Shown here: piece by piece, positions 34,571 through 51,978 of the stretch | How positions within the stretch are numbered: the first letter of the stretch is position 1 | Layout of the letters: each line of letters opens with the position of its first letter | From: Nitrososphaeria archaeon | GTDB lineage: Archaea > Thermoproteota > Nitrososphaeria > Conexivisphaerales > UBA164 | Direction: 5' to 3' | DNA: 64,000 nt | Assembly: GCA_046536595.1 (NCBI GenBank) | Contig: JAWDMM010000002.1 | Coordinates: 6,248 to 70,247, forward strand | Notes under the pieces: generated by a model | The model's input: the letters and a program-made list of their open reading frames with translations, nothing else | Database searches by the model: none | Told to the model about the DNA's origin: nothing | Translations under genes and position numbers: made by a program

Positions 34571-34644
34571 TTTATAAATAACTGCCAATTTTCATCTTTT
34601 TACTAGAGATCACGCTCTCACGGACAGGGTAGTTAACGATTTAA

Positions 34645-34719: not shown

Positions 34720-34720
34720 G

Positions 34721-34805
34721 TGCGGGGGGTGGGATTTGAACCCACGCACCCCAACGGGACGAGGTTCTAAGCCTCGCGCCATTGACCAGGCTAGGCGACC
34801 CCCGC
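34721..34805 (-). tRNA. tRNA-Leu (anticodon UAG), class II with a long variable arm
   Basis: Reverse complement: GCGGGGG..CGAGG CUUAGAA CCUCG UCCCGUUGGGGUG.. GUGGG UUCAAAU CCCAC CCCCCGC A. Confidence 0.9.
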
Positions 34806-34807
34806 GA

Positions 34808-34879
34808 TGGACCGGGGGGGACTCGAACCCCCGACCTCTCCCATGCCACGGGAGCGTTCTACCCCTGAACTACCGGCCC
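34808..34879 (-). tRNA. tRNA-Ala (anticodon GGC)
   Basis: Reverse complement: GGGCCGG UA GUUC AGGGGUA GAAC G CUCCC GUGGCAU GGGAG AGGUC GGGGG UUCGAGU CCCCC CCGGUCC A. It has the G3:U70 alanine identity pair. Confidence 0.9.
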
Positions 34880-35232: not shown

Positions 35233-36426
35233 TTATTTTGTATTATATTCCCCATGGTTTACTTCTCTAAAGAATTTCAATAATAAAATGATCGAAGAAA
35301 TTTGAAGAATGATAATATATGTAATAATTATACTAATTTGGTTGAAAAAATATCCTACTAAGATGTCAGCTACTAATAACCCATATCCATAAGAGGTATT
35401 TAATATCCCGAATGAGGATCCTCTTTGTTTCTCCTCTATATAACTGCCTACTATTGATCTTGCAACTGTATCGTTGATCCCAGTAAATGCACCAAATAAT
35501 AGACCAAGGAACATGTAAAACAAAATATTGTGAAAACTAACCATTGAAATGATTAATATTGCTAATATAGGACCAAAAATTATTATCTCTTTTCCAATTT
35601 TATCGTATGCTACGCCAAAGATAAATCCGAATATACCTTCACCTACCATAGCAAGCGTGAATATCAATGTTACCTCATACTGTGCCAAAAATCCCTGAGC
35701 CGAAACCAATATAAATGGGATATTATAGATTCCAGCTGCGCTCAAGCCTATCCCGAGAATATAGTACATAAGATGTCTTTTTTTAATTCCTTTTTCTATA
35801 TTTTTTCTAGCTTCAAAGTTTTTCTCCTTTTTTGAATATCTATATGAAGTATATAGAAATAGAATGCTCAAAGTTGCTGGTATTGCCAAAAATAGAAATG
35901 CATGCCTGAAACCATAATTATAAAAAAGCATCGCGGAAATTATTAAGGGACCTATTACAGCACCAGCTTGATCAAGCAAATTCTGTAATGCGAATGAATA
36001 GCCTATCCTATTTTCAGAACCCATTGTTGAAATAACATAATCCCTTGGCGGAATTCTTGTTGCACGACCCAGCCTCTCCATAATGATTAAAATTGACGCA
36101 ACAATGTAATTATTTGCTAGCGCAAGTAATGGTACTGCAAAAAGATTTATTACATAACCTAAAAACATCATCCCCCAGTAGTTTCTTGTTATGTCTGAAA
36201 TCTTTCCTGAAACGGATCTGAATGAATATCCCAAAAAGTCTCCAAGACCCATTACAATACCTAAGGCAAATACGGACCCGCCAAGCACATATGTAAAATA
36301 TTGCGGTATTATGCTTCTTGCGCTTTCGTATGTCATGTCAGCGAAAAAACTCACTATCCCTATCAGAATTATTAGCTTTAAATTTGGACTTATTTTCTTT
36401 ATTCCCTTACTCATATTTGAACTCAC
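35233..36426 (-). CDS. MFS transporter
   Basis: 397 aa and polytopic, with N-terminal FFADMTYESARS and the loop ERLGRATRIPPRD. It is a distant paralog of the MFS gene at 50830-51978. AT-rich. Confidence 0.7.
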   Translation of the reverse strand: MSSNMSKGIKKISPNLKLIILIGIVSFFADMTYESARSIIPQYFTYVLGGSVFALGIVMGLGDFLGYSFRSVSGKISDITRNYWGMMFLGYVINLFAVPLLALANNYIVASILIIMERLGRATRIPPRDYVISTMGSENRIGYSFALQNLLDQAGAVIGPLIISAMLFYNYGFRHAFLFLAIPATLSILFLYTSYRYSKKEKNFEARKNIEKGIKKRHLMYYILGIGLSAAGIYNIPFILVSAQGFLAQYEVTLIFTLAMVGEGIFGFIFGVAYDKIGKEIIIFGPILAILIISMVSFHNILFYMFLGLLFGAFTGINDTVARSIVGSYIEEKQRGSSFGILNTSYGYGLLVADILVGYFFNQISIIITYIIILQISSIILLLKFFREVNHGEYNTK

Positions 36427-36591: not shown

Positions 36592-38086
36592 TGACCTCCT
36601 CCCCGCCCTTGAAGAGGCGAGGGTTACCTGAAGGTCTCAAGGGTTACACCCCTTTACGGGTGCTACTCTGTTGTGATCTACTATGAAAGATATAGGCTTC
36701 TTTACTTTTGAAACAATTACGTTCACTGCTTTTTTGAGAATGTTCAATGCGCCGTTAAGGTCTGAATGAAGTCTGTGTCATTTAGGGCAACTAACTACTC
36801 CTCTCGGGTTTCTGCTGACTTCTACATCATGATAAGCACAGTTCTTTGAAGTATTGTACTCAACAACCTCAAACACTTTCATGCCATACTCTTGAGCCTT
36901 AAATTCTATTGTATCCATGAATTTGCGATAAGACCACAAGTTTACCGTAAATTTATTGCCCTTCTCCTGAGCTATCTCAAAAGGGTAGCCTAAGTATATA
37001 GTTGAAACGCCTAGTTAGTGCAACTCTTTTATTAAGTGCGAAGCAAAGTTCCTGTACAAGTGACGAAATCTTCTCTTTAATTTCCCGTGTAACTTCCTCT
37101 TCTCTTTTAACAACTCCTCATACGCTTTGTATTCGCCCATGTTTTTCGTTTTGTCTGCTAATGATTGTGCTTCTGCTATTTTATTTTCAAAGTAGAAATA
37201 ATCTTCCTTAGCCCTAACGCCTTTGTACAGCAACCAAGTTCCGTCTTCTACTATCACGCTTGCCAAAACGTTGATGCCTAAGTCTATTGAAGTCATTTTG
37301 TTTCCTTTAGGCGATTCGAGCTGAACACTTTTCCTTTCGCCGTGAACAATGTATTTGCTTTTATTTCCCTTTTTAGTTATTTCAACTCCTACATCAACAG
37401 GGATTGAAGCGTACCATGCGTTCTTTGCTTCGTCGTAGTATATTTCAAGCCTTCCCTGTTTACCGTACCACCTCAGCCTGCCTACGAAATCAATTTCAAG
37501 CTCAAAATCCTTGAGGATTAACTTATGGTTCTGCTCGTCCACAACGTACCTGTTTTGTCTAATCACGAGCATTAGCTTCCTCTTCTTTGTTTCTTTATCC
37601 TTCCAGTACTTCGGTGGGCTAATGCGTTTCATGAAGGGTGGCAATTTTCCTTCTTTCTTCAGCTTCAGTAAGGAAAAGAATGAGCTCCAGGCTTCGTTGT
37701 TCTTTTTCATGACTGCTTGAGCGTTAACTCCTAATTCTTCTTTATACTTTTCATAGCATTTGTCCCACGTTGTATCGAAGTCGACATGATGTTGCTGAAA
37801 GAACTGTTGTCTCCTTTCGTAGTTAATTTCGTTGAAGAGTTTCGCTGATATGTTCGCTAACCTTTTTAGTTTCCTTTCTTGGAAACCGTTCGGAAAAAGA
37901 CGCACAATGCTTGTCCTCTTATTCGTGTGCTTAACTTCGTAGATGCCCTCCTCTGGCATTGCGGGAGAATTCGGCTCCCGCCCCTCATGCCCTAAGAGTT
38001 GACCAGAAGAGAGCATTTCAAAACAAAATAGCATTTTTAATTTAAAAGCTTTTACCTCGCCATTTATGGCGAGGTTTGTCATTCAC
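36592..38086 (-). mobile_element. IS200/IS605-family element of the tnpB-only (IS1341-like) type, decayed
   Basis: Bounded by the 10-bp direct repeat tttatcaatc (36582-36591 and 38087-38096). The left end has a perfect subterminal hairpin cctcgcc-atttat-ggcgagg (38055-38074). The right end has a related imperfect hairpin ccccgcc-cttgaaga-ggcgagg (36601-36622). There is no tnpA. Confidence 0.75.
36637..38082 (-). pseudogene. tnpB: tnpB (RNA-guided nuclease family) with two in-frame stops and an eroded zinc finger
   Basis: The tracked ORF 37015..38082 ends at TAA 37015-37017. The same frame continues LGVSTIYLGYPFEIAQEKGNKF..EYNTSKNCAYHDVEVSRNPRGVVSCPK*HRLHSDLNGALNILKKA.. with a second stop at 36778-36780. 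RuvC motifs are present (SIDLGINV, YNTSK, SDLNGALNI). Confidence 0.8.
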
Positions 38087-38422: not shown

Positions 38423-38574
38423 TAATTTGGGAATAAATCTCACTGCAAAAAGTTCGTATATGGTTAAATATTACTTTGGTTAGTTTATTAACATGCTCCT
38501 AAAGGAGCATTAACGGGATGGAGTCCCCTATTAACCGCCTTTTTGGCTGATGACTCCTTTCGAGGTGATATTAA

Positions 38575-40050
38575 TTGGAGTATAAAAGCCTATTAGGTTC
38601 AAAAGGGTCAAAGGCCAATGAAGAGACAATTAGAGACCTAAGAATAGAAGAACTCATAAATGATATTTTGGGGAGTGATAAAAACCAGTTTTTAATTGAT
38701 GTATTTAAAGAGCCACTAAGCAACAAGAATGCAATTGATTTTAGGCTAAAAATATTCAACGATCTTATGGATGAAAAAATTTATAATGCCATAAAAAATT
38801 TTGTAAATAAAATAAAAGATTGCAACAGGTTGATGGATTTAGAGGCTAAAACATATGAAGAGTTTAAGTACGGTTTTCATATTGATGTAGCTCTAATTTA
38901 TGTAAATACGGTCGAAAATACATTAAATTTGATGCGCGAATTAAATACAAAATCAGATGGTATACTTTATTTCATTAACTATCTCGAAAATCTGATTCAG
39001 AGTGATAGATTTCAGGCTTTGAAGAGGATTACATATGAAGCGAAGACTGCCAGGGAAAAAATAAAGGTCAGAATAAACATAAACGGGGACCGAATAAGGG
39101 TTGCAAAGGAAGAAAACGGAGAAGATTTAACATCTAAGATTGAACAGTTGTTTTCGAAATTTAAAGGGCAGCAGGTCCGTGAACTTAAGTTTGATAGATA
39201 TTATGAGCAAATTACTCATATACACGCTGGAATATTAAATGGTGTTTACAGGATATTTAAAGAAGAATTTAACATTATGAAAAAATTAAAAGACGAATTC
39301 CCCGACATAGTAGATGAAGGCATCAAATCGTTTGCAAATGAGTTTGAGTTCTATCTTAAATATATCGAATATATGAAAAGCATTCAATCCAATGGATATA
39401 AATTTTCGATACCTCAATTTACCGAAGATGGGTCAATACACGTCAAAGGATTTTATAATTTGTTATTGGCTAGGAAGAATGTTGCTGTAGCTAATGATAT
39501 CCATACTACAGGTGATAAAAGGGTGTTTATAATAACAGGCATAAATAGCGGGGGAAAAACTACGTTTGCCATTACTTTTGGACAATTAGCATTTCTCTCT
39601 TTAATAGGCGTGCCTATCCCTGCAGAAGAGGCCAAAATATTCTTGTTTTCTAATATAATGACGGCTTTTCCAACAGAAGAGGATAAAATGGAGGATTTAA
39701 GCAGGTTAGAAAAGGATGTAGAAAGAGTACACAACATTTTAAAAACAGCTGATGATAAAACGCTCGTCATAGTTAACGAGCTTTTCTCTTCCACAACTTC
39801 GGAGGAAGGCTTTGAACTAGCAAAGCGTTTTATAGAAAAAATAACAAGCAAAGGATCATATCTTGTTTATGTGACATTTATTACAAAGATAGCCACACTT
39901 GAAAACGTTATCAGTCTTGTGACACAAATACAAGACGAGAAACCGACTTTCAAAATCATAGAAAGCAATCCTCTTTCTAAATATATGGCAATTCAAATAG
40001 CATCTAAGCATCGCCTACTTTATGAAGATATTAAAAGTGATCTTGGATGA
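38575..40050 (+). CDS. MutS-family ABC ATPase (core/lever plus domain V only), paralog 1
   Basis: 491 aa with Walker A ITGINSGGKTTF, a MutS-like signature region EDLSRLEKDVERV, and Walker B TLVIVNELFSSTT. There is no mismatch-binding, Smr or other nuclease domain. TTG start. Confidence 0.75.
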   Translation: MEYKSLLGSKGSKANEETIRDLRIEELINDILGSDKNQFLIDVFKEPLSNKNAIDFRLKIFNDLMDEKIYNAIKNFVNKIKDCNRLMDLEAKTYEEFKYGFHIDVALIYVNTVENTLNLMRELNTKSDGILYFINYLENLIQSDRFQALKRITYEAKTAREKIKVRININGDRIRVAKEENGEDLTSKIEQLFSKFKGQQVRELKFDRYYEQITHIHAGILNGVYRIFKEEFNIMKKLKDEFPDIVDEGIKSFANEFEFYLKYIEYMKSIQSNGYKFSIPQFTEDGSIHVKGFYNLLLARKNVAVANDIHTTGDKRVFIITGINSGGKTTFAITFGQLAFLSLIGVPIPAEEAKIFLFSNIMTAFPTEEDKMEDLSRLEKDVERVHNILKTADDKTLVIVNELFSSTTSEEGFELAKRFIEKITSKGSYLVYVTFITKIATLENVISLVTQIQDEKPTFKIIESNPLSKYMAIQIASKHRLLYEDIKSDLG

Positions 40051-41507
40051 TCCAGTTTGACCTTCTAAAGCTAAGCGATGCCCCTGAAATTGAAGACAAA
40101 AATAATCTAAAGAAAGATTTAGAGCTGGAGAAAATAATAGAAATAATAGCCCAAAAGGATGATCTGGTACAAAAGGTATGGGAGCATGTGCTTTTGTTAT
40201 CTAAAGCCGATATCAATTCTATAAAATACAGACAGGAAGCTGTTAAAGATGCTATTCAGAATAGAGATACAGTATTAAACATGTACAAATTTACGGGGGA
40301 GGTCATAGATAGGACAATAAGGGCGGCATTTATTGTTACGTACGATAATCCAGAGTTAATAGTTTACGATACAGCAAATGGGATAAAGGTAATGATAGAT
40401 GCGTTAAAAGATTTAAAAGACATTCTTGATAGATCGAGCTTCTTATCTGAAGCTTTTCGGGAACTGATAAGCTCTATAAAAGAGAACATAGATGACAATT
40501 TTATAGTTTCCGCAAAAGAACTAATGGGTTTTCTTGATATTAGAAGTGGCACAGAATTTTCTGTTAGGCTCAGCATGTACAACACTTTAAGTGACCCTGT
40601 ATTTTTAATTCATGAAAAGGAAAGGAGCTTAATGAAAAGAATAATTAGCAGGAAAAATGATTACGTTTTTAGATTGGAGCCGCGAGATGAAGTAGGTGCA
40701 GAAATTTTGGGAAAGATTAATGAATGGGTTTTAAGTGGTTTGGCTCCAACAATGCTTGAGGCTTATGAGCATTTATTGCAGTTTTTCACAACCTTACATA
40801 CGCAACTGGCTTTCTTTGTAGGCGCCATAAACCTTTACGATTTCTTTAAAAAGATCGAACTGCCTTTGGCTTATCCAGATTTTTCTGAAGGTACAATATC
40901 ATTTCGCGATCTATACTGCCTCTCCTTGGCAATATCAAAAAATGAAAAACCTGTCCCAAATTCTCTTGATGTCCATAACATAAATGCATTCATAATAAGT
41001 GGGATCAATAAAGGCGGCAAAACTACATTCTTAAAAGCTATAGGTCAAGCAATACTGCTTGCAAGGGCCGGGCTCTTTGTGCCGGCCAATAATTTTATAA
41101 TTCCATCTTCGGGGAATGTTTTTACTCATTTTCAGAGAGAGGAAGAAAGGACACTGTCATATGGGAAATTTGAAGAAGAAATAATAAGGTTCAGAAAAAT
41201 AATTGAATCGCTAAAGGCTGGAGACTATGTTTTAATGAACGAAAGCTTCTCATCAACTAACCAGGTTGAGGCATCCGTAGTAGCTAAACAAGTTGTATCT
41301 GCCCTAATAGATAGCAAAATAACTGTTTTTTACGTTACGTTTTTGCAGGACTTCATATATGATTTTATTAAAGAAAATAAAAATAAGGCCGTTCTATTAA
41401 CCCCTGAAAGGCTAAAAGATGGAACAAGAACGTTCAAGTTAGTACAAGGCTTTGTTCAGTCAGGATATGCGTTAGAGATATGGGACAAATATTTTATGGA
41501 AAATTGA
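40047..41507 (+). CDS. MutS-family ABC ATPase (core/lever plus domain V only), paralog 2
   Basis: 486 aa with Walker A ISGINKGGKTTF, the signature region TLSYGKFEEEIIRF, and Walker B YVLMNESFSSTN. The start ATG overlaps the upstream stop by 4 nt. Confidence 0.75.
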   Translation: MIQFDLLKLSDAPEIEDKNNLKKDLELEKIIEIIAQKDDLVQKVWEHVLLLSKADINSIKYRQEAVKDAIQNRDTVLNMYKFTGEVIDRTIRAAFIVTYDNPELIVYDTANGIKVMIDALKDLKDILDRSSFLSEAFRELISSIKENIDDNFIVSAKELMGFLDIRSGTEFSVRLSMYNTLSDPVFLIHEKERSLMKRIISRKNDYVFRLEPRDEVGAEILGKINEWVLSGLAPTMLEAYEHLLQFFTTLHTQLAFFVGAINLYDFFKKIELPLAYPDFSEGTISFRDLYCLSLAISKNEKPVPNSLDVHNINAFIISGINKGGKTTFLKAIGQAILLARAGLFVPANNFIIPSSGNVFTHFQREEERTLSYGKFEEEIIRFRKIIESLKAGDYVLMNESFSSTNQVEASVVAKQVVSALIDSKITVFYVTFLQDFIYDFIKENKNKAVLLTPERLKDGTRTFKLVQGFVQSGYALEIWDKYFMEN

Positions 41508-41891: not shown

Positions 41892-42536
41892 ATGATTTCA
41901 GGCGTGGTGTTTGATCTTGATGGGACGCTGATAGATAGTGCAGAACAGCTTGCGATAGCATGGTCTAAAGCTTTAAAAGAGTTTGGGTACGATGTAAAAC
42001 CATCAGAAATAAGAAAGTATGTTGGTCTTTCGCCAGCTGTGCTTATCTCAAAGTTCATAAGCAACCTGAGTAACGATGATTTAGAAATGATAAAGAGCTT
42101 AAGGAAAAGGCACTTTATAGAAAACATAAATAGAATTAAGATGTTTCCAGATGCTGTTTCCTGCTTATCAAATTTAAGGAGTATTGGGGTCAATGCTTCA
42201 ATAGCAACAAGCTTGGGCAGGGATATGATTGATGAAATAGTAAAGCACTTTAACCTTGATAGGATGGTCTGCTGCTGGGTTACCGGTGAAGACGTAAAAA
42301 ACCCAAAGCCAGAGCCCGACGTATTCTTAAAGGCATTTGAAAAAATGAATTTAACGCCAAGGGAGGGCATCGTTGTGGGAGACAGAGAATATGACATAAT
42401 AGGTGGTAAAAGGGCCGGTTCACTTACAGCACTCATTGTAAGGGATCAGTACAGCAAAACAAATAGCGTGCAGCCAGACTACATAATACACAGCTTGGAT
42501 GAACTTCTTGAAATAATAAAGAAGATTAATTTCTAA
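41892..42536 (+). CDS. HAD-superfamily phosphatase (PGP/beta-PGM-like)
   Basis: 214 aa with motif I VVFDLDGTLIDS, motif II IATS, and motif IV VVGDREYDIIGGKRAG. Confidence 0.8.
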   Translation: MISGVVFDLDGTLIDSAEQLAIAWSKALKEFGYDVKPSEIRKYVGLSPAVLISKFISNLSNDDLEMIKSLRKRHFIENINRIKMFPDAVSCLSNLRSIGVNASIATSLGRDMIDEIVKHFNLDRMVCCWVTGEDVKNPKPEPDVFLKAFEKMNLTPREGIVVGDREYDIIGGKRAGSLTALIVRDQYSKTNSVQPDYIIHSLDELLEIIKKINF

Positions 42537-42833: not shown

Positions 42834-44564
42834 TTAAAACCTAGATATATAAATTATAATAAATAGAAACATTATAATTAGATATATTATGTATATATTT
42901 ATTTGGCTGTTCATTACATAATATGATATATATTTGGCAATTTTTTTGCATGTCAGTGTAAATTTGACTAGCGAATCCCAGAATATGTTTCTTGCATATG
43001 TATATTCATTAGGTGTATACAATGATTTGAGTATAAGTTTTAGGTTATTGCTAAATGCACTTGGTGTATACTTTTCCTGAATTGCTTCTCCATTGTTCCA
43101 AACTGGTACTCTCCTAAGTTTGTTCTTTCCAAATGCAAAATATGTCACTAATGTAAACAAGCCTATAAGAAGGCCTACATATAAAGGCGAAATTCCACCA
43201 AAAGTTGACCCAGATTCTTTAAGGGAGATTATAATGAAATATGTAAAAAGATTTGGTGCAGAGCTAGTAAAAATTGAATCAAGCGCATTAACTATTATTG
43301 AAGAGATCATGCCAGAAAATAGCACGATTAGACCCATTATAAAAATGGAAAAGTTTCCCTTTTTTTCTGATGAAGAAAATACACCCGAAAAGGCTATGAA
43401 TTTAATCATAACTGCCGTGATCAAACCTTCAGTCATTGCCATTATCGTTCCCACAAATAAGAAGAGAAGACCAAATAATGAATTTCTTTCAACGAATGCT
43501 GACATGAACATTATCTCGAGAAGCATCCAGGTTGCAACGCCTCCTATATTAGGAAGCAAACCTGAAAGTGACGATGCAAGAAGAAGCCTGCCCACATCAA
43601 CCTGTCTAGAACTTATTCCGGTTGAACTTGACATATATTCGCTTTTTATAAGCCCACTTATCATAAATATTCCGCTTTTTGCAAAAGAATGGGCCAAGCT
43701 GAAAAGGGCAACACCTATAACAGAAAATAATGCAATAGTATTATTAGGGGCAAACAGCGAAACCCCCAGCAGAAGAAGAATTGACCCATAACTTTCGACT
43801 GAACTATATGCTGGAAGCATCTTATAATGATCTGAAGCGTGTGAATACAGTGCGCCAAAGAATGCAGTAAATGCGCCTACACTTATAAGCAGTAACCCCA
43901 GATCGGGGTCAATTGGGCTAAGCATTGACATTTTAATTATTCCATAAACACCCATGAGTGGCATTGTTGCACTTAATGCTGCAGAAACGTTTGCCGGTGC
44001 ACTGCTATGGGCTATTGGCAGCCATTCTACAAGTAAAAATGGAAATGCCCCCATTTTTAATAGAAAGCCTATTACTGTTAAATCCAATGGAAGCGTCGAC
44101 GTAAGACGAGTAAAGGCAATTGAGCCTGTCTGCGAATATGCTAGCGCAAACCCCAGCAGTATAAATATAGTGCTAAGTTCGCTAAACGCCATAAAAATAA
44201 ATGATGGAAAGCTCTTTTCCCTATGTATGCCCAAAATAAAATATGCAGATATACTCATTATTTCCCAGCCGCTCAAAAATATCAGATAGTTCCCTGAAGT
44301 CAGCACCAACGACATGCCAGCTAACATAATTGCAAACAGAGGAGAAAGCCACCTGCCATATCTGTCATAGGAAATCGAATAGATTGATATCATTGCCCAA
44401 GATACGCTGGTTATAAGCCAAAACAGGTGCAATATGTTAAAGCTAAAAACTGCTACTGCAGCCATAAAAATCGAAGTAATGACTAACGCAAAATATCCAG
44501 TTTTTCTATTTGCTATAGCCAATATGGCTGAAAAGAAAAATAATGTAGGTATGATAATATTCAT
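42834..44564 (-). CDS. NuoL/HycC/HyfB-like antiporter-type membrane subunit
   Basis: 576 aa and polytopic, with the proton-pumping-subunit motif LVEWLPIAHSSAPANVSAALSATM. Confidence 0.8.
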   Translation of the reverse strand: MNIIIPTLFFFSAILAIANRKTGYFALVITSIFMAAVAVFSFNILHLFWLITSVSWAMISIYSISYDRYGRWLSPLFAIMLAGMSLVLTSGNYLIFLSGWEIMSISAYFILGIHREKSFPSFIFMAFSELSTIFILLGFALAYSQTGSIAFTRLTSTLPLDLTVIGFLLKMGAFPFLLVEWLPIAHSSAPANVSAALSATMPLMGVYGIIKMSMLSPIDPDLGLLLISVGAFTAFFGALYSHASDHYKMLPAYSSVESYGSILLLLGVSLFAPNNTIALFSVIGVALFSLAHSFAKSGIFMISGLIKSEYMSSSTGISSRQVDVGRLLLASSLSGLLPNIGGVATWMLLEIMFMSAFVERNSLFGLLFLFVGTIMAMTEGLITAVMIKFIAFSGVFSSSEKKGNFSIFIMGLIVLFSGMISSIIVNALDSIFTSSAPNLFTYFIIISLKESGSTFGGISPLYVGLLIGLFTLVTYFAFGKNKLRRVPVWNNGEAIQEKYTPSAFSNNLKLILKSLYTPNEYTYARNIFWDSLVKFTLTCKKIAKYISYYVMNSQINIYIIYLIIMFLFIIIYISRF

Positions 44565-45166
44565 TGCATTTCACCGTATTTTATTTTAACCAAGGTGTAA
44601 AGATATGTGTATGGATTTGGGGGGCATCCAGGCACCACGGCATCAAACTTTATGGGCATTTTGCTCATAATGGCACCACTGCAACCAGCTATCGCAATTT
44701 TTGGTTCAGGCATTGAATCATATGCTCTTACTAATGGTTCTATCATTTTTTCTGATAACTTCCCAAGGACTATAAGGGCATCAGCGTGTTTTGGAGTGTT
44801 AACAAAAAAAATCCCAAATCTACTAATATCATAATGTGGACTTGTCAAAGCATTTAATTCTAAATTGCATCCGCCGCATGATCCAACATCTATTGGATAA
44901 ATAAACAAAGATTTCTTAAACGCTTTATTATAATTGTTAACAATTCCTATTCTGGAATCACCTGTTGGATGGTAATTAGGAAAACACATTCTGCAAAAAA
45001 TGCATTTTTCAGGATCCCATTTACCTTCGTTTATGGCACCAGTTGGACAGTAGCTATTGCCCTTTCCCGTGATTCTGGTTGACCAACCGGGCAAGTATTC
45101 TTGATTCCCCACTGGAAATCTTTCAGTCTTTATTCCATTTTTTAATCCCTTTAAAAACCAGTTCAT
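44561..45166 (-). CDS. NuoB/HycG-like [4Fe-4S] small subunit with an N-terminal single-cluster ferredoxin stub
   Basis: 201 aa. The C-terminal part has VGSCGGCNLE .. IAGCSGA .. VPGCPPNP (HycG/NuoB cysteine pattern). The N-terminal part has ..YCPTGAI..(12 aa)..CIFCRMCFPNYHP, which is one CP plus one CxxCxxC. Confidence 0.75.
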   Translation of the reverse strand: MNWFLKGLKNGIKTERFPVGNQEYLPGWSTRITGKGNSYCPTGAINEGKWDPEKCIFCRMCFPNYHPTGDSRIGIVNNYNKAFKKSLFIYPIDVGSCGGCNLELNALTSPHYDISRFGIFFVNTPKHADALIVLGKLSEKMIEPLVRAYDSMPEPKIAIAGCSGAIMSKMPIKFDAVVPGCPPNPYTYLYTLVKIKYGEMQ

Positions 45167-46284
45167 ACAAATTTCACCCCCAATTCAGACGACCAAATCC
45201 CAAAACTTTCCCAGTTAAATGGAAAATCAGTAAATATATTACCCACCATTGACTTTACAAAAAAATCTAAATTGATTTCTGATGGCGAAAGCAAATAAAC
45301 TTCTTTTATTTTTTCATCAATTATTTTTACAAAATACGCCAGGTCCCCTGATGGCGATTCCACCCTTCCAATCCCATCGCCGTTAATCACTGGCGGCGTA
45401 ATCGCATACTTGGTTTTGATTATGTCAAGTGCGTTGTAAATTATTTCTGCAGATTTTTCTATTTCTGAAGCTCTGACCATGAACCTTCCAAGTGCATCAC
45501 CGCTTTCTTGTAATATACCGCCTTTAAAATCAAGGTCGCTATAAGGTAAGTAGTCAGCGTCAATTCTCGCATCATAGTTAAAGCCTGCTGCACGAGCTGC
45601 AGGTCCAATTAAGCTATCATCCTTTATGATACCATTTTTGTCCAATCTATCAAGAAATATTCTAGTATCAAGCAGGTCATTAAATATTTCATTAAACTGT
45701 TTAACAATAATTGAAAGCTGACCCCTAAGTTCTTGAAATTTACCAACTTCGCTGTTAAAGAAAAATCTATGACCATAAGCTACATCTATGGCTCTATTTA
45801 TAAGTTCACGAAGATAAAAAAGCATGTTTGATGCAACTCCCTGGGAAGATGCTTCAACCATTCGGCCTATCACATGTAAATTATTTCTTATCCTTTCTAG
45901 TTCAATTCTAACTATCATATCAAGCTTCATATTATAATCTATATCCTTGCTACATGCAATAAGAAACGCAGCGCGATGAGCCGCTGAAAAGTTGGCATTT
46001 ATGCGCTCCACTACTGCAAGAGCGTCTTTGACCTTCATGCCAGATATCGTAAAAATTCTATCCTTATATAGCATTGGCCTTATCTTCAATATTTTTTCTC
46101 CAGAAGTATGTATGTTAAATCCAATCGATTCTATTAAACCCCCAGCAGAAGGGCCATACATAAAATTAAACGTCCCATATTCCTGTTCTATAGTGGGCTC
46201 AGGGCTTATTACTTCAGCTTTTTCTAGTCCATTTGAAAAAAGCACATAATCACCCAGTCTTCCAATTTTTCTACCTCTGTTCAT
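45163..46284 (-). CDS. NuoD/HycE-like large subunit homolog lacking NiFe-binding cysteines
   Basis: 373 aa. VERINANFSAAHRAAF sits where hydrogenases have ERxCGxCxxxH. The C-terminus ..NWESFGIWSSELGVKFV sits where DPCxxCxxR/H is expected. The only cysteine is a single residue in FLIACSKD. No NuoC-like domain. Confidence 0.75.
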   Translation of the reverse strand: MNRGRKIGRLGDYVLFSNGLEKAEVISPEPTIEQEYGTFNFMYGPSAGGLIESIGFNIHTSGEKILKIRPMLYKDRIFTISGMKVKDALAVVERINANFSAAHRAAFLIACSKDIDYNMKLDMIVRIELERIRNNLHVIGRMVEASSQGVASNMLFYLRELINRAIDVAYGHRFFFNSEVGKFQELRGQLSIIVKQFNEIFNDLLDTRIFLDRLDKNGIIKDDSLIGPAARAAGFNYDARIDADYLPYSDLDFKGGILQESGDALGRFMVRASEIEKSAEIIYNALDIIKTKYAITPPVINGDGIGRVESPSGDLAYFVKIIDEKIKEVYLLSPSEINLDFFVKSMVGNIFTDFPFNWESFGIWSSELGVKFV

Positions 46285-47591
46285 ATATAAATCACCAAAA
46301 ATAATCCTAATAATAGAGGCACTAAAGATGCTATAACTGCTACTGCCGCCATAATTTTTGGATCAGACTGCCTTTTGTTTCCGCTAAATACCATCTTTGT
46401 TACATTGTAGTTTACTGATATAAATGCCAGAGCTATGATTAAGGCAAGAAATATTGCCTCATACGTTAGTCCAATTTTAAAAAGCTGTATCAATATAAGG
46501 AATTCTCCTACAAAGTTTGCAAATGGGGGTGCTCCTGTAACTGCAAGTGAAGAAAGTATCAATGATGATGATGTAAATCTTAATCCTTGGGCACCGTTTA
46601 CATCATCAATATTTTTTGTGCCATACTTGCGGTTTATTATGCCAGAAGAATAAAACGCACCTGCTTTCGCAAACGCATGGGCTATGAGCAAAATCTCGGC
46701 ACCAATTATACCAAGCCCGCCTATAACAAATCCTATCAATGCTATATTCATGTTTTCCATTGAGGAATAAGCAAACATCCTCTTGAAATTCTTTTGATTG
46801 AGCAATGCTATTGAAGCAAAGGTAACTGACATCATTCCGAATGCAATAAAAAGTACCATTTCGGGATCAAGCTGGTAAACCATATAAAGCACGTAAAGCG
46901 CAGTGGGGAGCAGTATTCCAGAAAACATGGCACTTACTGGGGCTGGAGCCTCGCTATGAGCATCAGGAAGCCATGTGTGTACAGGGAAAACCCCTATCTT
47001 AGTACCAAACCCGACAAGAGCTATTCCTACGGCAAGTGCGAGAACCTTGGAATTTTTAGTGATCGCTAGGGCCGTAGATACTGTCAGCGTGCCCAACGAA
47101 TAATAAATAAGTATAATTGAAATAAAAGCCACAGCGACACCGGCAGAAACTAGCACAATGTATCTCCATGCAGCTTCTATGGAGGTTTCAGACTTCTCCA
47201 TAAATAGCAATAGAGCGGAAGTGATAGTTGTTGCCTCTATACCTACCCACATAAGCCCATAGTTATTGACCATAACGGTAAAAATCATAGATGCTGCAAA
47301 TAGGTCAATTAAAGCATAGTATAAATTTTCAGAAAGTGAAGGATTAGCAATGTAATTCAAGGAATAGATCGTAGATAACAGATAAATTGAAACGATCATA
47401 ATAACAAACAACCATGAAATTTTATTAATTAGATAAAAATTTACCTGCAAGTGCTTATAAAGTAGCAGTGAAAGCAGAAGGTCGACAGAAGATGTAGCAA
47501 TAGATGTTTGCTTGTACCACCGCGTAAATCCTGAAAGTGAAGCCAAAGCCGGCATCATAATTATCAGAGTAGGCAATAACATGGTTATCAA
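46281..47591 (-). CDS. NuoM/N/HyfF-like antiporter-type membrane subunit
   Basis: 436 aa and polytopic, with the motif FPVHTWLPDAHSEAPAPVSAMFSGILL. Confidence 0.8.
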   Translation of the reverse strand: MITMLLPTLIIMMPALASLSGFTRWYKQTSIATSSVDLLLSLLLYKHLQVNFYLINKISWLFVIMIVSIYLLSTIYSLNYIANPSLSENLYYALIDLFAASMIFTVMVNNYGLMWVGIEATTITSALLLFMEKSETSIEAAWRYIVLVSAGVAVAFISIILIYYSLGTLTVSTALAITKNSKVLALAVGIALVGFGTKIGVFPVHTWLPDAHSEAPAPVSAMFSGILLPTALYVLYMVYQLDPEMVLFIAFGMMSVTFASIALLNQKNFKRMFAYSSMENMNIALIGFVIGGLGIIGAEILLIAHAFAKAGAFYSSGIINRKYGTKNIDDVNGAQGLRFTSSSLILSSLAVTGAPPFANFVGEFLILIQLFKIGLTYEAIFLALIIALAFISVNYNVTKMVFSGNKRQSDPKIMAAVAVIASLVPLLLGLFLVIYI

Positions 47592-48214
47592 CCTCTTAAT
47601 TCTTCCATGGGGAAGTGCTCTTCCTTTTCAATTATAACTACGGTAGAAATTATGACGAGGCCTATAACATCGAGAAGCACACTAGCTTCAATAAGAAGCG
47701 GTAGGCTTATTATAAAAAGGCCAAACAGCACAAGTGCATTTTCCTCTTCCACATAACCTATTATCTGAATATGCGTATTCCTCCTTGATGCTATAAGAAA
47801 CAGGCCTTGGAAAAACAGTGCAGTTGCAAAAAGCAGCAGTGCATTGTTTAATTCTAAATACGATATAAAGAAGAATTGAAATATTATAAGTACAAACATT
47901 GTCATGAAAAGATCTATTATAAGAGATGATGCTACACCTTTCAGGGATTCCCTTTTTAGCTCTGGAATAAATTTAAGAGATTTATTTAGCATATGTGTAA
48001 TAGCAATAGCCCTTAATACTATTACCAGAAATCCAAATTCGATCAGATACAAATTGGGTTCTAAGAAACCTATTGCAAGTATCATAACCCCAATGATTAA
48101 CGATTCAATTTCCAACCCAGTAATTGCCGGCTTTATATAGGCCTGTCCCTGAATGTAAAATGCATTTAAAAGTACCAGCATTAAAATTATTTCATAAAAA
48201 GAGTATTGAATCAT
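47588..48214 (-). CDS. HyfE-like (extended NuoK-like) membrane subunit
   Basis: 208 aa. ASRRNTHIQIIGYVEEENALVLFGLF..EASVLLDVIGLVII parallels E. coli HyfE ..SQRNILRQIFGYCLMENGSHLV..EIGIATDAIFAVIV. Confidence 0.7.
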   Translation of the reverse strand: MIQYSFYEIILMLVLLNAFYIQGQAYIKPAITGLEIESLIIGVMILAIGFLEPNLYLIEFGFLVIVLRAIAITHMLNKSLKFIPELKRESLKGVASSLIIDLFMTMFVLIIFQFFFISYLELNNALLLFATALFFQGLFLIASRRNTHIQIIGYVEEENALVLFGLFIISLPLLIEASVLLDVIGLVIISTVVIIEKEEHFPMEELRG

Positions 48215-49158
48215 ATTCCTCCACCAATTATTGTAAATATTAATGAAAGTACAGACACTGTAAAAGCTATTGAAAGATAATCCTGAATTTTAAATAGCCT
48301 TAATTTTGCCAATGATGTTTCAATTATAAGCGATATCCCTATCAGAATTAACCATTTTAAAAACATAACAGCTGGGTCTAAAAGGTAGCCAAATTGCCCA
48401 TTAAACAACCAAAAAGGCATCAAAAATACATTTAGTAGGACGGAACCAAGTAGATATTGTTTCATATAAGACCCCCACTTTAAAATCCCAAGGAGCTTCC
48501 CGCTGTATTCATAGTTAAGCCCCTCATCAATCATTCCCATTTCAGATAAACCAGAGCTTTCTACTGGGAGTCTGCCACTTTCAAACAGCCATAACATAAA
48601 AAATGCTATCGTGCCAAATAAATGATCTAGCAAAAGGTAATTTTCAGGATTACTAACTGTATTTAAAGTTATATAAGGATTGTTTGTTCCTGTAATTAAT
48701 GCAACCGCAAAGAAAACCGAAATCAAGGTACCTTCGCTTAAAAACATAAAGGATGTAACTCTGGCAGCAGATAAAGCCACAAAATTGCTCCTGCTGCTCA
48801 ATGCACCATTGATTTTTATAAATGATGCAAGAGTAAAAAGTATAGCACCCCCAAGAAAATCTACCGTTGCTGTAAAGGCTATGGGCGATGGAATAACAAC
48901 AGGAATAACAAACGAAATAAGTATGTAAATTGCAAATATAATATAGGGAGCAGCTATAAATATCTGGCTGGCTTCAACTGGTATTAAGGTTTCTTTTTTT
49001 AATAATTTGAATATATCATAATATGGTTGCAGAATACTTGGACCTTGCTTGCCTTCTATCATCGCCTTAGCTTTACCAAAAATACCTACATACAATGGCG
49101 CAGAAAATACAGTAAATAAAACCTGTATGACGGCGCCTTCTATGATTTGTAATGACAT
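48211..49158 (-). CDS. NuoH/HycD-like membrane subunit
   Basis: 315 aa. The N-terminus ..APLYVGIFGKAKAMIEGKQGPSILQPYYDIFKLLKKE parallels HycD ..APLLSGITRVARARLHNRRGPGVLQEYRDIIKLL. Confidence 0.8.
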   Translation of the reverse strand: MSLQIIEGAVIQVLFTVFSAPLYVGIFGKAKAMIEGKQGPSILQPYYDIFKLLKKETLIPVEASQIFIAAPYIIFAIYILISFVIPVVIPSPIAFTATVDFLGGAILFTLASFIKINGALSSRSNFVALSAARVTSFMFLSEGTLISVFFAVALITGTNNPYITLNTVSNPENYLLLDHLFGTIAFFMLWLFESGRLPVESSGLSEMGMIDEGLNYEYSGKLLGILKWGSYMKQYLLGSVLLNVFLMPFWLFNGQFGYLLDPAVMFLKWLILIGISLIIETSLAKLRLFKIQDYLSIAFTVSVLSLIFTIIGGGI

Positions 49159-49281
49159 TTTTTAACACCTTTTGATTTTTTGATTGGCAGGCGTCATTAG
49201 CATACGCGGTTCAGGATTTTATCCTAGGAGGACGCCATCTCCTGATTTAGGAGAAAATATGGATATTTATAAATTTGTCCG

Positions 49282-49289: not shown

Positions 49290-50052
49290 GGTGCCGTTAA
49301 CTTAAGGCTTAAAATTTATTTTTCAGCGGGGCCCTATTTATAGCAAATGATCTTACAAACCAGAAAAAGGACCCCAATAGCACTTATACTCTATGCCTTA
49401 TATCTTTATTTCTCCAGTTTGAGCTTGAGGAGGGCTTCCCATGTACTCGAGCCAATAATTAAGAGAAGCCACGTTGCAATATGGAAATGGATTCAGAAGT
49501 ATTCTTTCGTATTCGACTCTGACGTTGACAAACACGATGTCAATTTCATATTTATTAATGAAACTAAAATAAACATTGGTGGAAAGAAAGCTTGGCTATG
49601 GGTAGCGTATGAACCTCAACTCAAAGCGTTCCTATCGTTTTACATAAGCTGGCACCAGAACTCTCTTATGCTTTTTCATAAGGAAGCTTGTAAAGAAGTA
49701 TGGTAAGAAGACTATCTACACAGAGCTCTTAGGTACGTTGATGCTCGCAGGTGGGCAAGGGTAGATCATGTTGTATATGAACATAGCCTGAAGAACCTCA
49801 TGTAAAGGATGAATGAATATATAAAGGACAGGACAGAAGCTTTTGACGACCTTTTCCCGTGCAAAAAGCCAAAATTTGAGCACGTAAAGAACTGGTTCAA
49901 AGCATTCATTCAGGTTCTTCTATAACTATGTATTCACGAACGAAGAAATTGGTGCAGCGCCATTATCAAATGATCAGCTGTCTGAATGGATTAAGCCAAT
50001 TTTGTTAATTGCAAGCATGAGGTGATCAGAATGAGCTTAAGTTAACGGCACC
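49290..50052 (+). mobile_element. IS6-family-like insertion sequence (763 bp), non-autonomous copy
   Basis: Perfect 17-bp terminal inverted repeats: ggtgccgttaacttaag (49290-49306) and its complement (50036-50052). It is flanked by an 8-bp direct duplication. The size, GG-initiated repeats, 8-bp duplication and single DDE gene fit the IS6 family. Confidence 0.8.
49347..49925 (+). pseudogene. Frameshifted DDE transposase of the IS6-like element
   Basis: ORF 49347..49706 reads ..HVAIWKWIQKYS..FIFINETKINIGGKKAWLWVAYEP.., so the expected first catalytic D (DET) is N. Downstream the protein continues only across other frames and stops (..VKKYGKKTIYT.., ..ARRWARVDHVVYEHSLKNLM*RMNEYIKDRTEAFDDLFP..). 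Confidence 0.7.
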
Positions 50053-50060
50053 TGTTTTTC
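50053..50060. repeat. Right copy of the 8-bp target-site duplication TGTTTTTC
   Basis: See 49282-49289. Confidence 0.85.
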
Positions 50061-50188
50061 CGTCTCTTTTCTGTTATCTGGAAATTATTTCATGCTATCT
50101 TATCCCGAAATTATTACATACCCTTAGATATTTAAAAAATAAAAGTTATTTAAGCAGTTTTTGGATAAGCATTGTTAAGAAACACAGG

Positions 50189-50762
50189 ATGAGAAGACTT
50201 AGTACAGGGGTTATACATGTTCAGAAAAAAGCTGTAAGACATAAAAGGCCTGTTCCTGAGAGCGTTAGGAATGAAATCGTTGAGCTGTACAGAAAATACA
50301 GAATTAGCGCAAGCTATAACGGCAAAATTCTCAAAGCGAAAGGATTACACATCAGAAATGAAAAGATGAACCAAGTCCTCAAGGAGGTTGGTTTTGCAAT
50401 GAGCGAGCCTAAAAAGTAGCACAGAAAGAAGTGGATAAGGTATGAGAGAGAAAATTCTAATTCATTATGGCAAGTTGATTGGCACGAAATGAAGGATCCA
50501 AGGTGGAAGGGTTTATGGCTGATCGTGTATGAAGATGATTCATCAAGATTTATAGTGGGTTATGGCGTTTATCCAACTCCGGCATCAAAGTTCTTCGATT
50601 TTTGTTGATAAATTTATGCACTTGTACAACTTCATAAGGCCACATGGAGCATTTGACTTTGAAAGGCTTGAAACTCCAGCAGTTATATTTTATCAAAAGC
50701 TATCTAAGAGGAGAGTTATAATGGACACAACATTGCTGGAGAATATTCAAGGGATCAAATGA
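50189..50762 (+). pseudogene. Internally deleted rve (integrase-core DDE) transposase; copy B
   Basis: The HTH part is intact (ORF 50189..50419). After a stop the frame reads ..KKWIRYERENSNSLWQVDWHEMKDPRWKGLWLIVYEDDSSRFIVGYGVY.. and then jumps directly to the C-terminal tail ..FVDKFMHLYNFIRPHGAFD..ETPAVIFYQKL (50562..50762). The catalytic middle is missing. Confidence 0.7.
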
Positions 50763-50829: not shown

Positions 50830-51978
50830 ATGCCAGTCAGATGGTTAAACAAAAATATACTGTTGATTTCCTTCTCAGCATTCTTCTCAGATCTGGGTTA
50901 TCAGGCCGTACTTGCTGTGTTGCCAGTACTTTTGGTTATCATTTATCATGCTCCAGTATACATTTATGGAATAACTGTGGCAGTATCATATGGGTTTGGA
51001 GCTATACTTGGATATCTGGGAGGCAGGCTTGCCGATAAATTTGGAAGAAAGAAGGTTGCTGTAGTAGGAAATGCTTTAATTACCTTGCTTTCATTTAGCG
51101 GACTGACGAACAACGCATATGAAGCATCAGCACTATTCAGCGCTGGATGGTTATCCAGAAACTTTAGGTCCCCAGCAAGGAAGGCATTGATAAGCGAAGA
51201 AATAAATGAAGATAACAGGGGTAGGGTGTTCGCGTTGTTAAATGCGCTTGACGTTGGTGGAGGAGTGTGTTCGATATTAATACTGTTAGCGCTTATCTAC
51301 CTAGGCATACCTCTCAGATACATAATACTGCTTACAGCCATACCCATAGTCATGGCTACAGCACTTTTGGTAATGGTCAAGGAAAAACACAACGAGACTA
51401 GGAAAGTTAACGAGGAAGCTTCAGGCCACGGAGCATATAGGGGCGTGCTACTTGCAACGGCCCTGTACGGGTTTAGCATTTACAGTCTCGGGTTCCCCGT
51501 TTTGACCATAGCACAGGCAACACATATGAACGTGCCTGCCTTTGCATCATACGGCCTTTTCCTGCTTGCTTCTGCTGTGTTTGGATACTTTATCGGTACA
51601 AGAAAGTTAAAGTTGGTTCCGGCACTTGGATTTTTAGGCTACCTGCTATCAGCGATTGGGACATTTATGCTTGGACTTTCATATTTTTTTAGATGGGGAC
51701 TTCCAGCTCTAATGTTTTCTGTATTGATAATAGGAATGGCCATTGGTACAATAGACACATTGGAACCAAACCTCATAACCCAAGTAAAGAAACAGCTTGG
51801 TGAAGGTATGGGTTCTTTAACAGCTTCAAGAAGCGCTGGATTATTTATAGGCAATCTCACAATGGGGTTCCTTTATTATTTTAATCCGTTGTATTCATAT
51901 TCATATGCTGCAGCCGCCTCAGCCATAGCAGCCGCAATGCTGTTTATCCTTGGAGGAAAGTTCAGCGGCCTTATTTGA
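50830..51978 (+). CDS. MFS transporter
   Basis: 382 aa and polytopic, with GGRLADKFGRKK and the loop SRNFRSPARKALISE. Confidence 0.75.
   Translation: MPVRWLNKNILLISFSAFFSDLGYQAVLAVLPVLLVIIYHAPVYIYGITVAVSYGFGAILGYLGGRLADKFGRKKVAVVGNALITLLSFSGLTNNAYEASALFSAGWLSRNFRSPARKALISEEINEDNRGRVFALLNALDVGGGVCSILILLALIYLGIPLRYIILLTAIPIVMATALLVMVKEKHNETRKVNEEASGHGAYRGVLLATALYGFSIYSLGFPVLTIAQATHMNVPAFASYGLFLLASAVFGYFIGTRKLKLVPALGFLGYLLSAIGTFMLGLSYFFRWGLPALMFSVLIIGMAIGTIDTLEPNLITQVKKQLGEGMGSLTASRSAGLFIGNLTMGFLYYFNPLYSYSYAAAASAIAAAMLFILGGKFSGLI

Follow-up and report, generated by a model that had tools for sequence, protein, structure and literature searches.

What might a hydrogenase-like membrane complex do whose large subunit can no longer bind nickel and iron? 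The question is raised by a 64,000-nucleotide (nt) stretch of DNA from an uncultured Nitrososphaeria archaeon (contig JAWDMM010000002.1, positions 6,248 to 70,247; hereafter the window, in whose numbering all positions are given). Its minus strand carries a six-gene operon for a complex related to group-4 hydrogenases and complex I, in which the large subunit has lost all four Ni-Fe cysteines. The cysteine loss itself is not new, because the Ehr (energy-converting hydrogenase-related) class and Thermoplasmatales members without Ni-binding motifs have been described before. The new lead is a fluoride riboswitch in front of the operon, which is near-universal in the archaeal clade and points to survival of fluoride and acid stress rather than to hydrogen metabolism. 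We put at roughly 45% the probability that the locus as a whole is best explained as a fluoride-induced Ehr complex, most likely working as a redox-driven proton or cation pump.

The six genes are given below in operon order, with the length of each product in amino acids (aa) and the family model that it matches.

48211..49158, minus strand: NuoH/HyfC/HycD-like membrane anchor subunit, 315 aa (Pfam PF00146, E 3.6e-30)
47588..48214, minus strand: HyfE-like small membrane subunit, 208 aa (NCBIfam NF008556, hydrogenase 4 membrane subunit, E 4e-6)
46281..47591, minus strand: HyfF/NuoM-N-like antiporter-like subunit, 436 aa (passes NCBIfam NF005042, hydrogenase 4 subunit F, with 561.7 bits; cutoff 437)
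45163..46284, minus strand: NuoD/HyfG-like large-subunit homolog, 373 aa, without a NuoC domain (Pfam PF00346 Complex1_49kDa, E 1.1e-19)
44561..45166, minus strand: small subunit, a fusion of a NuoI/HycF-half with a NuoB/HycG-like domain, 201 aa (Pfam PF01058, E 1.7e-15, and PF00037)
42834..44564, minus strand: HyfB/NuoL-like antiporter-like subunit, 576 aa (passes NCBIfam NF005046, hydrogenase 4 subunit B, with 568.3 bits; cutoff 460)

All five gene junctions are 4-nt overlaps, and the large subunit is encoded by the fourth gene. The same cassette was found at 77 of 77 genome loci of relatives (numbered with an L where a single one is meant), as six genes or whatever part of them the contig reaches, in the order NuoH-like, HyfE-like, HyfF-like, large, small and HyfB-like (H-E-F-L-S-B) or permuted to F-L-S-B-H-E. 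The archaeal relatives come from Sulfolobales (Saccharolobus, Acidianus, Metallosphaera, Stygiolobus, Sulfuracidifex), Thermoplasmata (Ferroplasma, Acidiplasma, Oxyplasma, Cuniculiplasma and many metagenome-assembled genomes, MAGs), Marsarchaeota, Micrarchaeota, a few Methanobacteriaceae MAGs and Thaumarchaeota/Conexivisphaerales. Almost all of these taxa belong to lineages that we take to be acidophilic, an attribution made by lineage and not by the habitat of the individual MAGs. The closest named relative is 61-63% identical, and metagenome contigs carry 98%-identical copies with the same neighbours. Source annotations call the relatives 'formate hydrogenlyase' or 'Ni,Fe-hydrogenase III large subunit'. 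Sister cassettes in bacteria (Acidithiobacillus, Bacteroidota, Acidoferrum) are cysteine-less too, and there the large subunit is fused to a NuoC-like domain.

The large subunit and its lost ligands

The open reading frame (ORF) of the large subunit, 45163-46284 on the minus strand, starts with ATG and encodes 373 aa at exactly the coordinates first assigned to it. A previous sequence-only reading of this gene had claimed that both cysteine pairs of the Ni-Fe site were replaced, that the pocket could not hold a Ni-Fe centre and that the fold-defining regions were nevertheless retained; all of the sequence strings it quoted occur in the translation. We placed the ligand positions with HMMER alignments to MbhL of P. 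furiosus and to HycE and with a MAFFT alignment that included E. coli HycE, HyfG and NuoCD (NC_000913.3). The two approaches agree, and the family composition at each position was taken from 76 large-subunit sequences.

Ni-Fe Cys1 (motif L1): N96 in the window protein; family N 71, C 4, Q 1 (n=76)
Ni-Fe Cys2 (motif L1): F99; family H 51, F 18, L 7 (n=76)
Ni-Fe Cys3 (motif L2): W364; family W 65 (n=76)
Ni-Fe Cys4 (motif L2): E367; family E 74 (n=76)
Nqo4 His38 (quinone ligand in the beta1-beta2 loop): I51; family L/I/M/R/T
Nqo4 Tyr87 (quinone ligand): A97; family G/A
MbhL E21 (proton-reduction/proton-relay Glu): E52; family E 75 (n=76)

In place of the L1 motif RxCGxCxxxH the protein has ERINANFSAAH, aligned to DRVCGICGFAH of HycE and ERMCGICSFSH of MbhL; in place of the L2 motif DPCxxCxx(H/R) it has SFGIWSSELGV, aligned to SLDPCYSCTDR of HycE. 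Both replaced pairs are therefore as the sequence-only reading had them, N and F at L1 and the C-terminal pair gone. The window protein retains no Ni-Fe cysteine, the few relatives that do retain at most one each, and the sole cysteine of the protein, C111 in the string FLIACSKD that the reading had singled out, is unconserved (V or I in relatives). With all four cysteines gone, a canonical Ni-Fe centre is impossible in this pocket. The alignments show that the replacements are family traits rather than chance, and that the pocket has neither a Ni-Fe site nor the quinone ligands of NuoD. Alignment had been named as the test of the reading, and with no cysteine at the metal positions and no NuoD His/Tyr in our alignments its claim of a lost Ni-Fe site stands.

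Several polar residues assigned to the former active site are conserved. E52 corresponds to MbhL E21, which has a role in proton reduction and is missing from MBS and complex I (PMC7684303). H172, in a GHR motif, and E367 are invariant in the archaeal family and in the bacterial cysteine-less relatives and are not found in HycE; 39 columns of the large-subunit alignment are invariant in total. The retention of E52 and the invariance of H172 and E367 argue that the pocket was remodelled under selection and has not merely decayed. The protein ends 3 residues past the position of the motif Arg of HycE, with no extension for maturation cleavage.

Profile and structure comparisons agree on the ancestry of the subunit. 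A large-subunit profile built from 39 relatives matched P. furiosus MbhL with an E-value of 3e-39, T. thermophilus Nqo4 with 1e-28 and E. coli HycE with 4e-28; the best single-sequence match in the PDB was MbsL (PDB 6u8y). The NuoD and hydrogenase models of NCBIfam gave several weak matches, all far under their cutoffs, and the NuoD equivalog NF004739 was not passed (66.9 bits, cutoff 360). An AlphaFold2 model calculated with the family alignment as input has a mean pLDDT of 90 and a pTM of 0.91, and a Foldseek search with this model returned the complex I 49-kDa/Nqo4 subunits at TM-scores of 0.75-0.79 and HycE as the best at 0.83. The model thus predicts that the hydrogenase/complex-I fold is retained, as had been supposed from the sequence.

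Comparison with characterised complexes places the window complex between several of them. Its gene order resembles that of E. coli hydrogenase 4 (HyfA-J), hyfC-E-F-G-(H/I)-B, its membrane subunits pass the HyfB and HyfF equivalog models and its small subunit has the hydrogenase-type CxxC; the structure of E. coli hydrogenase 3, the formate hydrogenlyase (FHL) complex (HycB-G; PDB 7z0s), supplies the best TM-score noted above. Unlike Hyf and Hyc, it has no Ni-Fe cysteines, NuoC domain, HyfA/HycB, FdhF or Hyp/HycI, and a single 201-aa protein combines reduced counterparts of HyfH and HyfI. P. furiosus MBH shares with it the best profile match (MbhL, PDB 6cfw), the Glu at E52 and the spacing of the proximal cluster, whereas MbhL holds Ni-Fe with four cysteines in a 14-subunit complex with an Mrp-type Na+ module (PMC7684303, PMC8165549) and the window complex has six subunits and no metal site.

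The sequence-only reading had likened the altered site to the quinone pocket of NuoD or to MbsL, and neither analogy survived. NuoD/Nqo4/49-kDa subunits share the fold, the loss of the four cysteines and an acidic residue at Cys4 (Asp in NuoD, E367 here). However, His38 and Tyr87 are I51 and A97 in the window protein, the NuoD equivalog scores are far too low, and there is no NuoA/C/E/F/G/I/J/K context. P. furiosus MBS/Mbx is alike in being hydrogenase-derived, in having lost the Ni-Fe site and in lacking the NuoD His/Tyr. MbsL keeps two of the four cysteines (C85, C385) and has no equivalent of E21, and in the 13-subunit MBS, which has an Mrp module, a shortened motif in MbsJ yields a three-Cys proximal [4Fe-4S] cluster that is itself the catalyst (PMC7684303). 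The window complex, in contrast, keeps no Ni-Fe cysteine, keeps E52, has a four-Cys proximal cluster with a CxxC of normal spacing and consists of six subunits.

Searches for partner genes covered the window and 10 kb on either side of the cassette at the 77 loci, by tblastn with E. coli queries and with low sensitivity: no homologs of NuoA, C, I, J or K were found, nor, by tblastn or flank search, of HycB, HyfA, Hyp (HypA), HycI or FdhF. No gene for an electron donor or acceptor beside the cassette is conserved across lineages, the most frequent flanking gene recurring at 14 of 77 loci as lineage-specific synteny, and neither formate dehydrogenase, carbon monoxide dehydrogenase nor Hyp is a conserved flanking gene around the cassette at the 77 loci.

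The complex is almost certainly of the Ehr type, and neither a hydrogenase nor NuoD. This class was defined in 2013 (PMID 23000657, as cited in PMC4758237, PMC6349859 and PMC4378227) and is described as homologous to group-4 hydrogenases, without Ni-Fe ligands, with Mrp-like subunits and of function not known (PMC6349859, PMC4758237, PMC5037454, PMC10432482). HydDB explicitly leaves it out as not metabolising H2 (PMC5037454). The window operon has the features by which the class is defined (PMC6349859, PMC4758237), a large subunit homologous to group-4 hydrogenases and NuoD without Ni-Fe ligands and co-encoded NuoB-, NuoH- and antiporter-like subunits, and the Ehr assignment that the earlier reading had implied holds. 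A six-gene nuoH/hyfE/hyfB-type cluster in Sulfobacillus (PMC4378227) and the 'putative group 4 hydrogenases lacking Ni-binding motifs' reported in 2013 from Thermoplasmatales of acid mine drainage (PMC3750248) are the same kind of cassette. Relative to the Ehr complexes described before, the archaeal clade lacks the NuoC-like domain that bacterial sister cassettes keep and has a NuoI-half/NuoB fusion with two clusters only.

A fluoride riboswitch in front of the operon

The strongest functional clue, the riboswitch at 49181-49251, lies outside the large-subunit gene with which the sequence-only reading was concerned. Three elements were recognised upstream of the operon.

49181..49251, minus strand: fluoride riboswitch aptamer (crcB motif, RF01734; Rfam cmscan 47.9 bits against a gathering threshold of 34, E 3.6e-10)
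49262..49275, minus strand: putative archaeal TATA/BRE-like promoter element AAATTTATAAATAT, read from the sequence, ~10-25 nt upstream of the aptamer
49165..49170, minus strand: Shine-Dalgarno-like AAGGTG, 6 nt upstream of the ATG

The aptamer ends 23 nt before the start codon of the NuoH-like first gene. All conserved nucleotides are present, with cores GAUGGCGU...AACCG...CUAAUGACGCCU and a 12-nt hairpin insert, and the pseudoknot strands GGCGU and ACGCC are complementary. Boxes resembling TTTAAATA occur at the equivalent spot in many related loci, and the element at 49262-49275 may act as the promoter. In the minimum free energy fold of the leader (-21 kcal/mol, z = -2.1), GACGCCUG pairs with the AGGUGUUA region and the 3' pseudoknot strand of the aptamer is paired with the Shine-Dalgarno (SD) sequence, an arrangement that would make the leader an ON switch.

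The counts of riboswitches rest on Rfam matches and on a motif search that required pseudoknot complementarity and was applied to 67 archaeal loci with upstream DNA. Matches above the Rfam gathering threshold stand at the equivalent position in the Thaumarchaeota, Sulfolobales, Metallosphaera, Marsarchaeota and Methanobacterium loci scanned, and upstream of the bacterial sister cassettes at 3 of 3 loci. A riboswitch precedes the first cassette gene at no fewer than 58 of the 67 archaeal loci, at a distance of 12-53 nt in 55 and of 160-179 nt in 3, the last three being Methanobacteriaceae. The whole 2.5 Mb searched contained 89 motif matches, and about 0.25 would be expected by chance in the cassette upstream windows. 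Nine loci were missed by the motif search; divergent copies were recognised by eye in 8 of them, which leaves L071 alone with none. The pseudoknot covaries, with seven complementary strand combinations over the 58 loci (strand pairs GCGU/ACGC, ACGU/ACGU, GAGU/ACUC, AAGC/GCUU and AUAU/AUAU among them). A home-made covariance model, R1, held just one 6-bp helix and served as a locator only; 40 of its 47 matches, weak ones included, lie directly upstream of the first cassette gene. From this comparative evidence it is very probable that the operon is under fluoride-riboswitch control.

The aptamers linked to Ehr cassettes differ from the usual crcB motif, often by an extra hairpin and, in Thermoplasmata, by a G-to-A change. 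A strict regular expression missed the Thermoplasmata variants, whose upstream sequences were then read by eye. These aptamers (L010, L011, L016, L020-L056; ~15-90 nt before the NuoH-like gene) read GGAAUGGCGUUUCC with a shorter P1, and perhaps form a variant class whose affinity or specificity has changed. In cassette-linked aptamers of Crenarchaeota and Thaumarchaeota (L002, L006, L014; AGGAUAAAAUCC at 49205-49218 on the minus strand of the window), an extra hairpin separates P1 from the AACCG core; MutS-linked aptamers in the same genomes lack it.

Genes called 'formate hydrogen lyase' have been reported downstream of crcB RNAs (Weinberg 2010, PMC2864571; PMC11139923) and are counted in the fluoride literature as one of the most frequent classes under riboswitch control, and a review of fluoride biology reads them as real FHL and as a shift to fermentation (PMC11139923). 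In contrast, the genes examined here are Ehr cassettes unable to make H2; 'FHL' genes of this family cannot be hydrogenlyases because they are cysteine-less. For the riboswitch-controlled 'FHL' genes of the window and of ~80 related loci this corrects a widespread mis-annotation. The searchable Ehr papers do not mention a fluoride riboswitch, and a limited literature search found no paper linking Ehr to fluoride. The near-universal riboswitch makes the function of Ehr, open since 2013, experimentally approachable, and it bears on the fluoride tolerance of bioleaching acidophiles.

An electron wire, a membrane arm and what they may do

The small subunit appears equipped to conduct electrons. 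Its N-terminal half-ferredoxin provides one complete [4Fe-4S] set, C40-P (motif 1) together with C55xxC58xxC61 (motif 2), and its NuoB/HycG-like domain has the hydrogenase-type C97xxC100, C162 and C181 as proximal [4Fe-4S] ligands, spaced as in HycG/HyfI. These eight cysteine columns are kept in 71-74 of 74 sequences; an apparent loss of the third NuoB-type cysteine was traced to a short deletion in the window protein that had shifted the MAFFT alignment. A two-cluster electron wire is thus predicted to run to the remodelled pocket. Three small subunits, from L003 and L057 (Methanobacteriaceae) and L073 (Micrarchaeota), are without the N-terminal four-Cys ferredoxin-like domain that the other 71 have, and in their hosts the riboswitch is 160-179 nt upstream as against ~20 nt elsewhere. 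In the closest genome relative (L001, 11104-11736), GSPP stands for GCPP at the fourth proximal-cluster cysteine and an extra cysteine lies two residues past the third (GCSC), which may be a ligand swap.

The membrane arm has kept its ion-path residues. In the HyfF-like subunit the Glu of transmembrane helix (TM) 5, E119, the Lys of TM7, K198, and the Glu of TM12, E363, are kept in 74-75 of 75 sequences, and in the HyfB-like subunit E101 (TM5 Glu), K170 (TM7 Lys) and H292 and K296 of TM8 are conserved. The NuoH-like subunit conserves the residues common to E. coli NuoH, HyfC and HycD (D48, K51, R133, E142, E217-Y218-S219, K268, R287), and the HyfE-like subunit has conserved membrane charges at R68, E89, R144, E158 and D182. 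Because the cassette is present at all 77 loci, its junctions overlap, and the Fe-S cysteines, ion-path residues and E52 are conserved, the six genes appear to be under purifying selection as a working machine.

These features can be assembled into a mechanism. Fluoride would stabilise the aptamer pseudoknot and free the SD from the 3' pseudoknot strand, turning on the operon. Electrons from a low-potential donor, probably ferredoxin, would enter the half-ferredoxin [4Fe-4S] cluster, move on to the proximal [4Fe-4S] cluster of the small subunit and then reach an acceptor where the large, small and NuoH-like subunits meet, and this electron transfer would drive ion translocation through the NuoH-like, the HyfE-like and the two antiporter-like subunits. 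The complex would thereby expel the protons that enter as hydrogen fluoride (HF) and restore membrane potential and pH gradient during fluoride export. The fluoride literature ties fluoride stress to HF entry and pH homeostasis, and in it Na+/H+ antiporters rank second among the gene classes behind fluoride riboswitches (PMC11139923). An inducible pump independent of ATP would be valuable because export of F- alone leaves the proton inside, and the need would be acute in acidophiles, where entry of HF, the membrane-permeant species, would be maximal. That the complex is a redox-driven proton or cation pump for HF stress is a tentative proposal, to which we give somewhat less than even odds.

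Several observations weigh against this proposal. No electron acceptor can be named, and the pocket has neither the metal-ligand cysteines nor the quinone His/Tyr. The ferredoxin-like input domain is missing in the two Methanobacteriaceae and the one Micrarchaeota relative, and to our knowledge Methanobacteria have no quinones; redox drive is perhaps not universal or essential for these reasons. The charge in TM12 is unconserved in the HyfB-like subunit. SD sequestration is predicted in this window alone, with a weak z-score, and the Thermoplasmata aptamers have AAUGG against the conserved GAUGG and fall below the Rfam gathering threshold, their 3' half and pseudoknot being canonical. In a tblastn search with bacterial CrcB and DUF190 queries, of low sensitivity, neither the window nor the 10 kb around each archaeal cassette yielded a crcB, DUF190 or CLC-F gene, so partnership with a fluoride exporter is unsupported at this archaeal locus. 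Expression or biochemical data were found for no member.

Two alternatives come next in probability. The complex could be a ferredoxin:quinone oxidoreductase, a minimal complex-I-like respiratory enzyme in which the cavity between large, small and NuoH-like subunits reduces a quinone of the host and fluoride control serves to replace or supplement a fluoride-sensitive energy metabolism. This agrees with the nearest structural matches of the large subunit, the complex I 49-kDa subunit and HycE, with an Fe-S wire that ends at a NuoB-like proximal cluster, with the retained charged residues of the NuoH-like subunit and with the acidic E367 at Cys4, where NuoD has Asp. The substitution of I51 and A97 for His38 and Tyr87, and a NuoD equivalog score of 66.9 bits against 360, speak against it, though the Sulfolobus NuoD itself is reported without H38 and Y87 (PMC4758237) and their absence is for that reason compatible with quinone chemistry. 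The cassette is also found in Methanobacteriaceae, which from general knowledge we take to be quinone-less and which there lack the ferredoxin-like domain, and on balance we consider a quinone oxidoreductase unlikely. Alternatively, the complex might be an Mrp-like secondary antiporter of cations and protons that fluoride induces for homeostasis of pH and ions, its hydrogenase-like module persisting as a structural or regulatory relic that carries no net electron flow. The high rank of Na+/H+ antiporters among fluoride-riboswitch genes (PMC11139923) would fit; the Glu/Lys pairs are kept in both antiporter-like subunits, some relatives have lost the ferredoxin-like input domain and no donor or acceptor partner is encoded nearby. 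A purely structural relic is hard to accept, however, because the eight Fe-S cysteines are kept in 71-74 of 74 sequences and the polar residues of the former active site, E52 and the Ehr-specific H172 and E367, are conserved, which makes a secondary antiporter distinctly doubtful.

The remaining explanations are less probable. A primary, energy-coupled extruder of fluoride or HF, with the remodelled polar pocket or the membrane arm handling fluoride, would account for the near-universal riboswitch link, for the crcB-DUF190 pair directly adjoining the cassette in Acidithiobacillus and Acidoferrum, for archaeal loci without crcB within 10 kb and for a pocket with invariant Asn, Glu, His and Arg. 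Yet anion transport is known for no member of the superfamily, the conserved Glu and Lys residues mark proton or cation paths, and the bacterial cassettes that lie next to crcB point to a complex working alongside a separate exporter, not in place of it; we regard this as very unlikely. A genuine formate hydrogenlyase or H2-evolving group-4 hydrogenase has in its favour the database annotations, the 'hydrogenase 4 subunit B/F' equivalog cutoffs of NCBIfam that are passed and the hyfC-E-F-G-(H/I)-B-like gene order, and it is scarcely credible given that the four Ni-Fe cysteines are absent here, that the few relatives with any keep one at most, that FdhF, HycB, HyfA, Hyp and HycI were not found in the searches of the window and the 77 loci, and that HydDB excludes Ehr (PMC5037454). 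Hydrogenlyase or hydrogenase identity is refuted at the sequence level by the loss of the Ni-Fe cysteines. Hardly more plausible is a decaying pseudo-enzyme or relic operon without function: its catalytic ligands are lost and no partner genes are nearby, but the six genes are intact, contig ends aside, at 77 loci in several archaeal phyla and again in bacteria, 39 large-subunit columns are invariant and a dedicated riboswitch is conserved upstream.

A more specific idea is that Ehr cassettes of this kind are no general respiratory enzymes and serve fluoride stress alone, as primary extruders of the components of HF that draw their energy from redox reactions. In its mild version the complex would remove H+ and leave F- to another exporter with which it cooperates; taken to the extreme, fluoride itself might be handled by the remodelled polar pocket (putatively E52, N96, H172 and E367) or by the membrane arm. 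We consider this improbable. If true, the complex I/hydrogenase superfamily would gain a new physiological role, and the question of what Ehr complexes do would be answered.

Fluoride-linked neighbours and genomic context

The gene classes that the literature lists for fluoride-riboswitch regulons (mutS-like, 'formate hydrogen lyase', HAD, enolase and crcB) all occur around these cassettes. In the window, the operon has the following fluoride-linked neighbours.

38506..38566, plus strand: second fluoride riboswitch, upstream of a MutS-like pair (Rfam 40.4 bits against a gathering threshold of 34)
38575..41507, plus strand: two tandem genes for MutS-domain-V ATPases, 491 and 486 aa, behind the second riboswitch (Pfam PF00488)
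41892..42536, plus strand: HAD-family hydrolase, convergent with the Ehr operon (Pfam PF13419, E 5.6e-37)

Orthologous riboswitch-preceded MutS-like pairs adjoin the cassette in L001, L012, L014, L031 and the bacterial L088 (Bacteroidota). The HAD neighbour recurs in all near-identical metagenome contigs, a HAD gene also adjoins the cassette in L089, and fluoride riboswitches have been reported with HAD hydrolase genes (PMC11139923). In the Bacteroidota MAG locus an enolase gene lies upstream and a MutS-like pair, a CMAS methyltransferase and a major facilitator superfamily (MFS) gene downstream; the Acidoferrum locus has HAD, DUF190-crcB, MutS and MFS neighbours, and in the Acidithiobacillus locus two cassettes flank crcB-DUF190. 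This last locus (L087, Acidithiobacillus albertensis MOAD01000001.1, 2556150-2575721) has the cysteine-less cassettes in tandem around crcB, DUF190 and a HEAT-repeat gene, and its riboswitch lies between the cassettes, before a 124-aa ORF that precedes the second one. In a Methanobacterium locus (L003, 13468-15082) a further fluoride riboswitch follows right after the cassette, then a 267-aa ORF and, as judged by eye, a putative soluble inorganic pyrophosphatase; pyrophosphatase is among the genes associated with fluoride riboswitches (PMC11139923).

MFS transporter genes flank the island in the window at 35233-36426 (minus) and 50830-51978 (plus), and no riboswitch was detected before either. 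Both of them, and the MutS pair, are homologous to the riboswitch-controlled genes of the Bacteroidota locus L088, where the MFS gene has a fluoride riboswitch to itself. In L001 the MFS gene sits between the MutS pair and the cassette, in the order riboswitch-MutS-MutS-MFS-riboswitch-cassette on one strand, relative to which the window cassette is inverted. At the borders of the island, 37015-38082 (minus) and 49347-50762 (plus), we found an ORF resembling IS605 OrfB/TnpB and several short putative transposase remnants; the inversion possibly arose by rearrangement mediated by insertion sequences.

The host is an uncultured, Conexivisphaerales-like member of the Nitrososphaeria. RNA polymerase A' and A'' form one unsplit 1247-aa ORF at 59883-63626 (minus), a state that we take to be typical of Thaumarchaeota/Nitrososphaeria and that fits such a host. 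The remaining surroundings are those of an ordinary chromosome, with a membrane-bound ion-translocating pyrophosphatase at 30986-33238 (minus), an archaeal signal recognition particle RNA at 13258-13565 (minus) and a tRNA-Arg/Leu/Ala cluster at 34644-34879 (minus).

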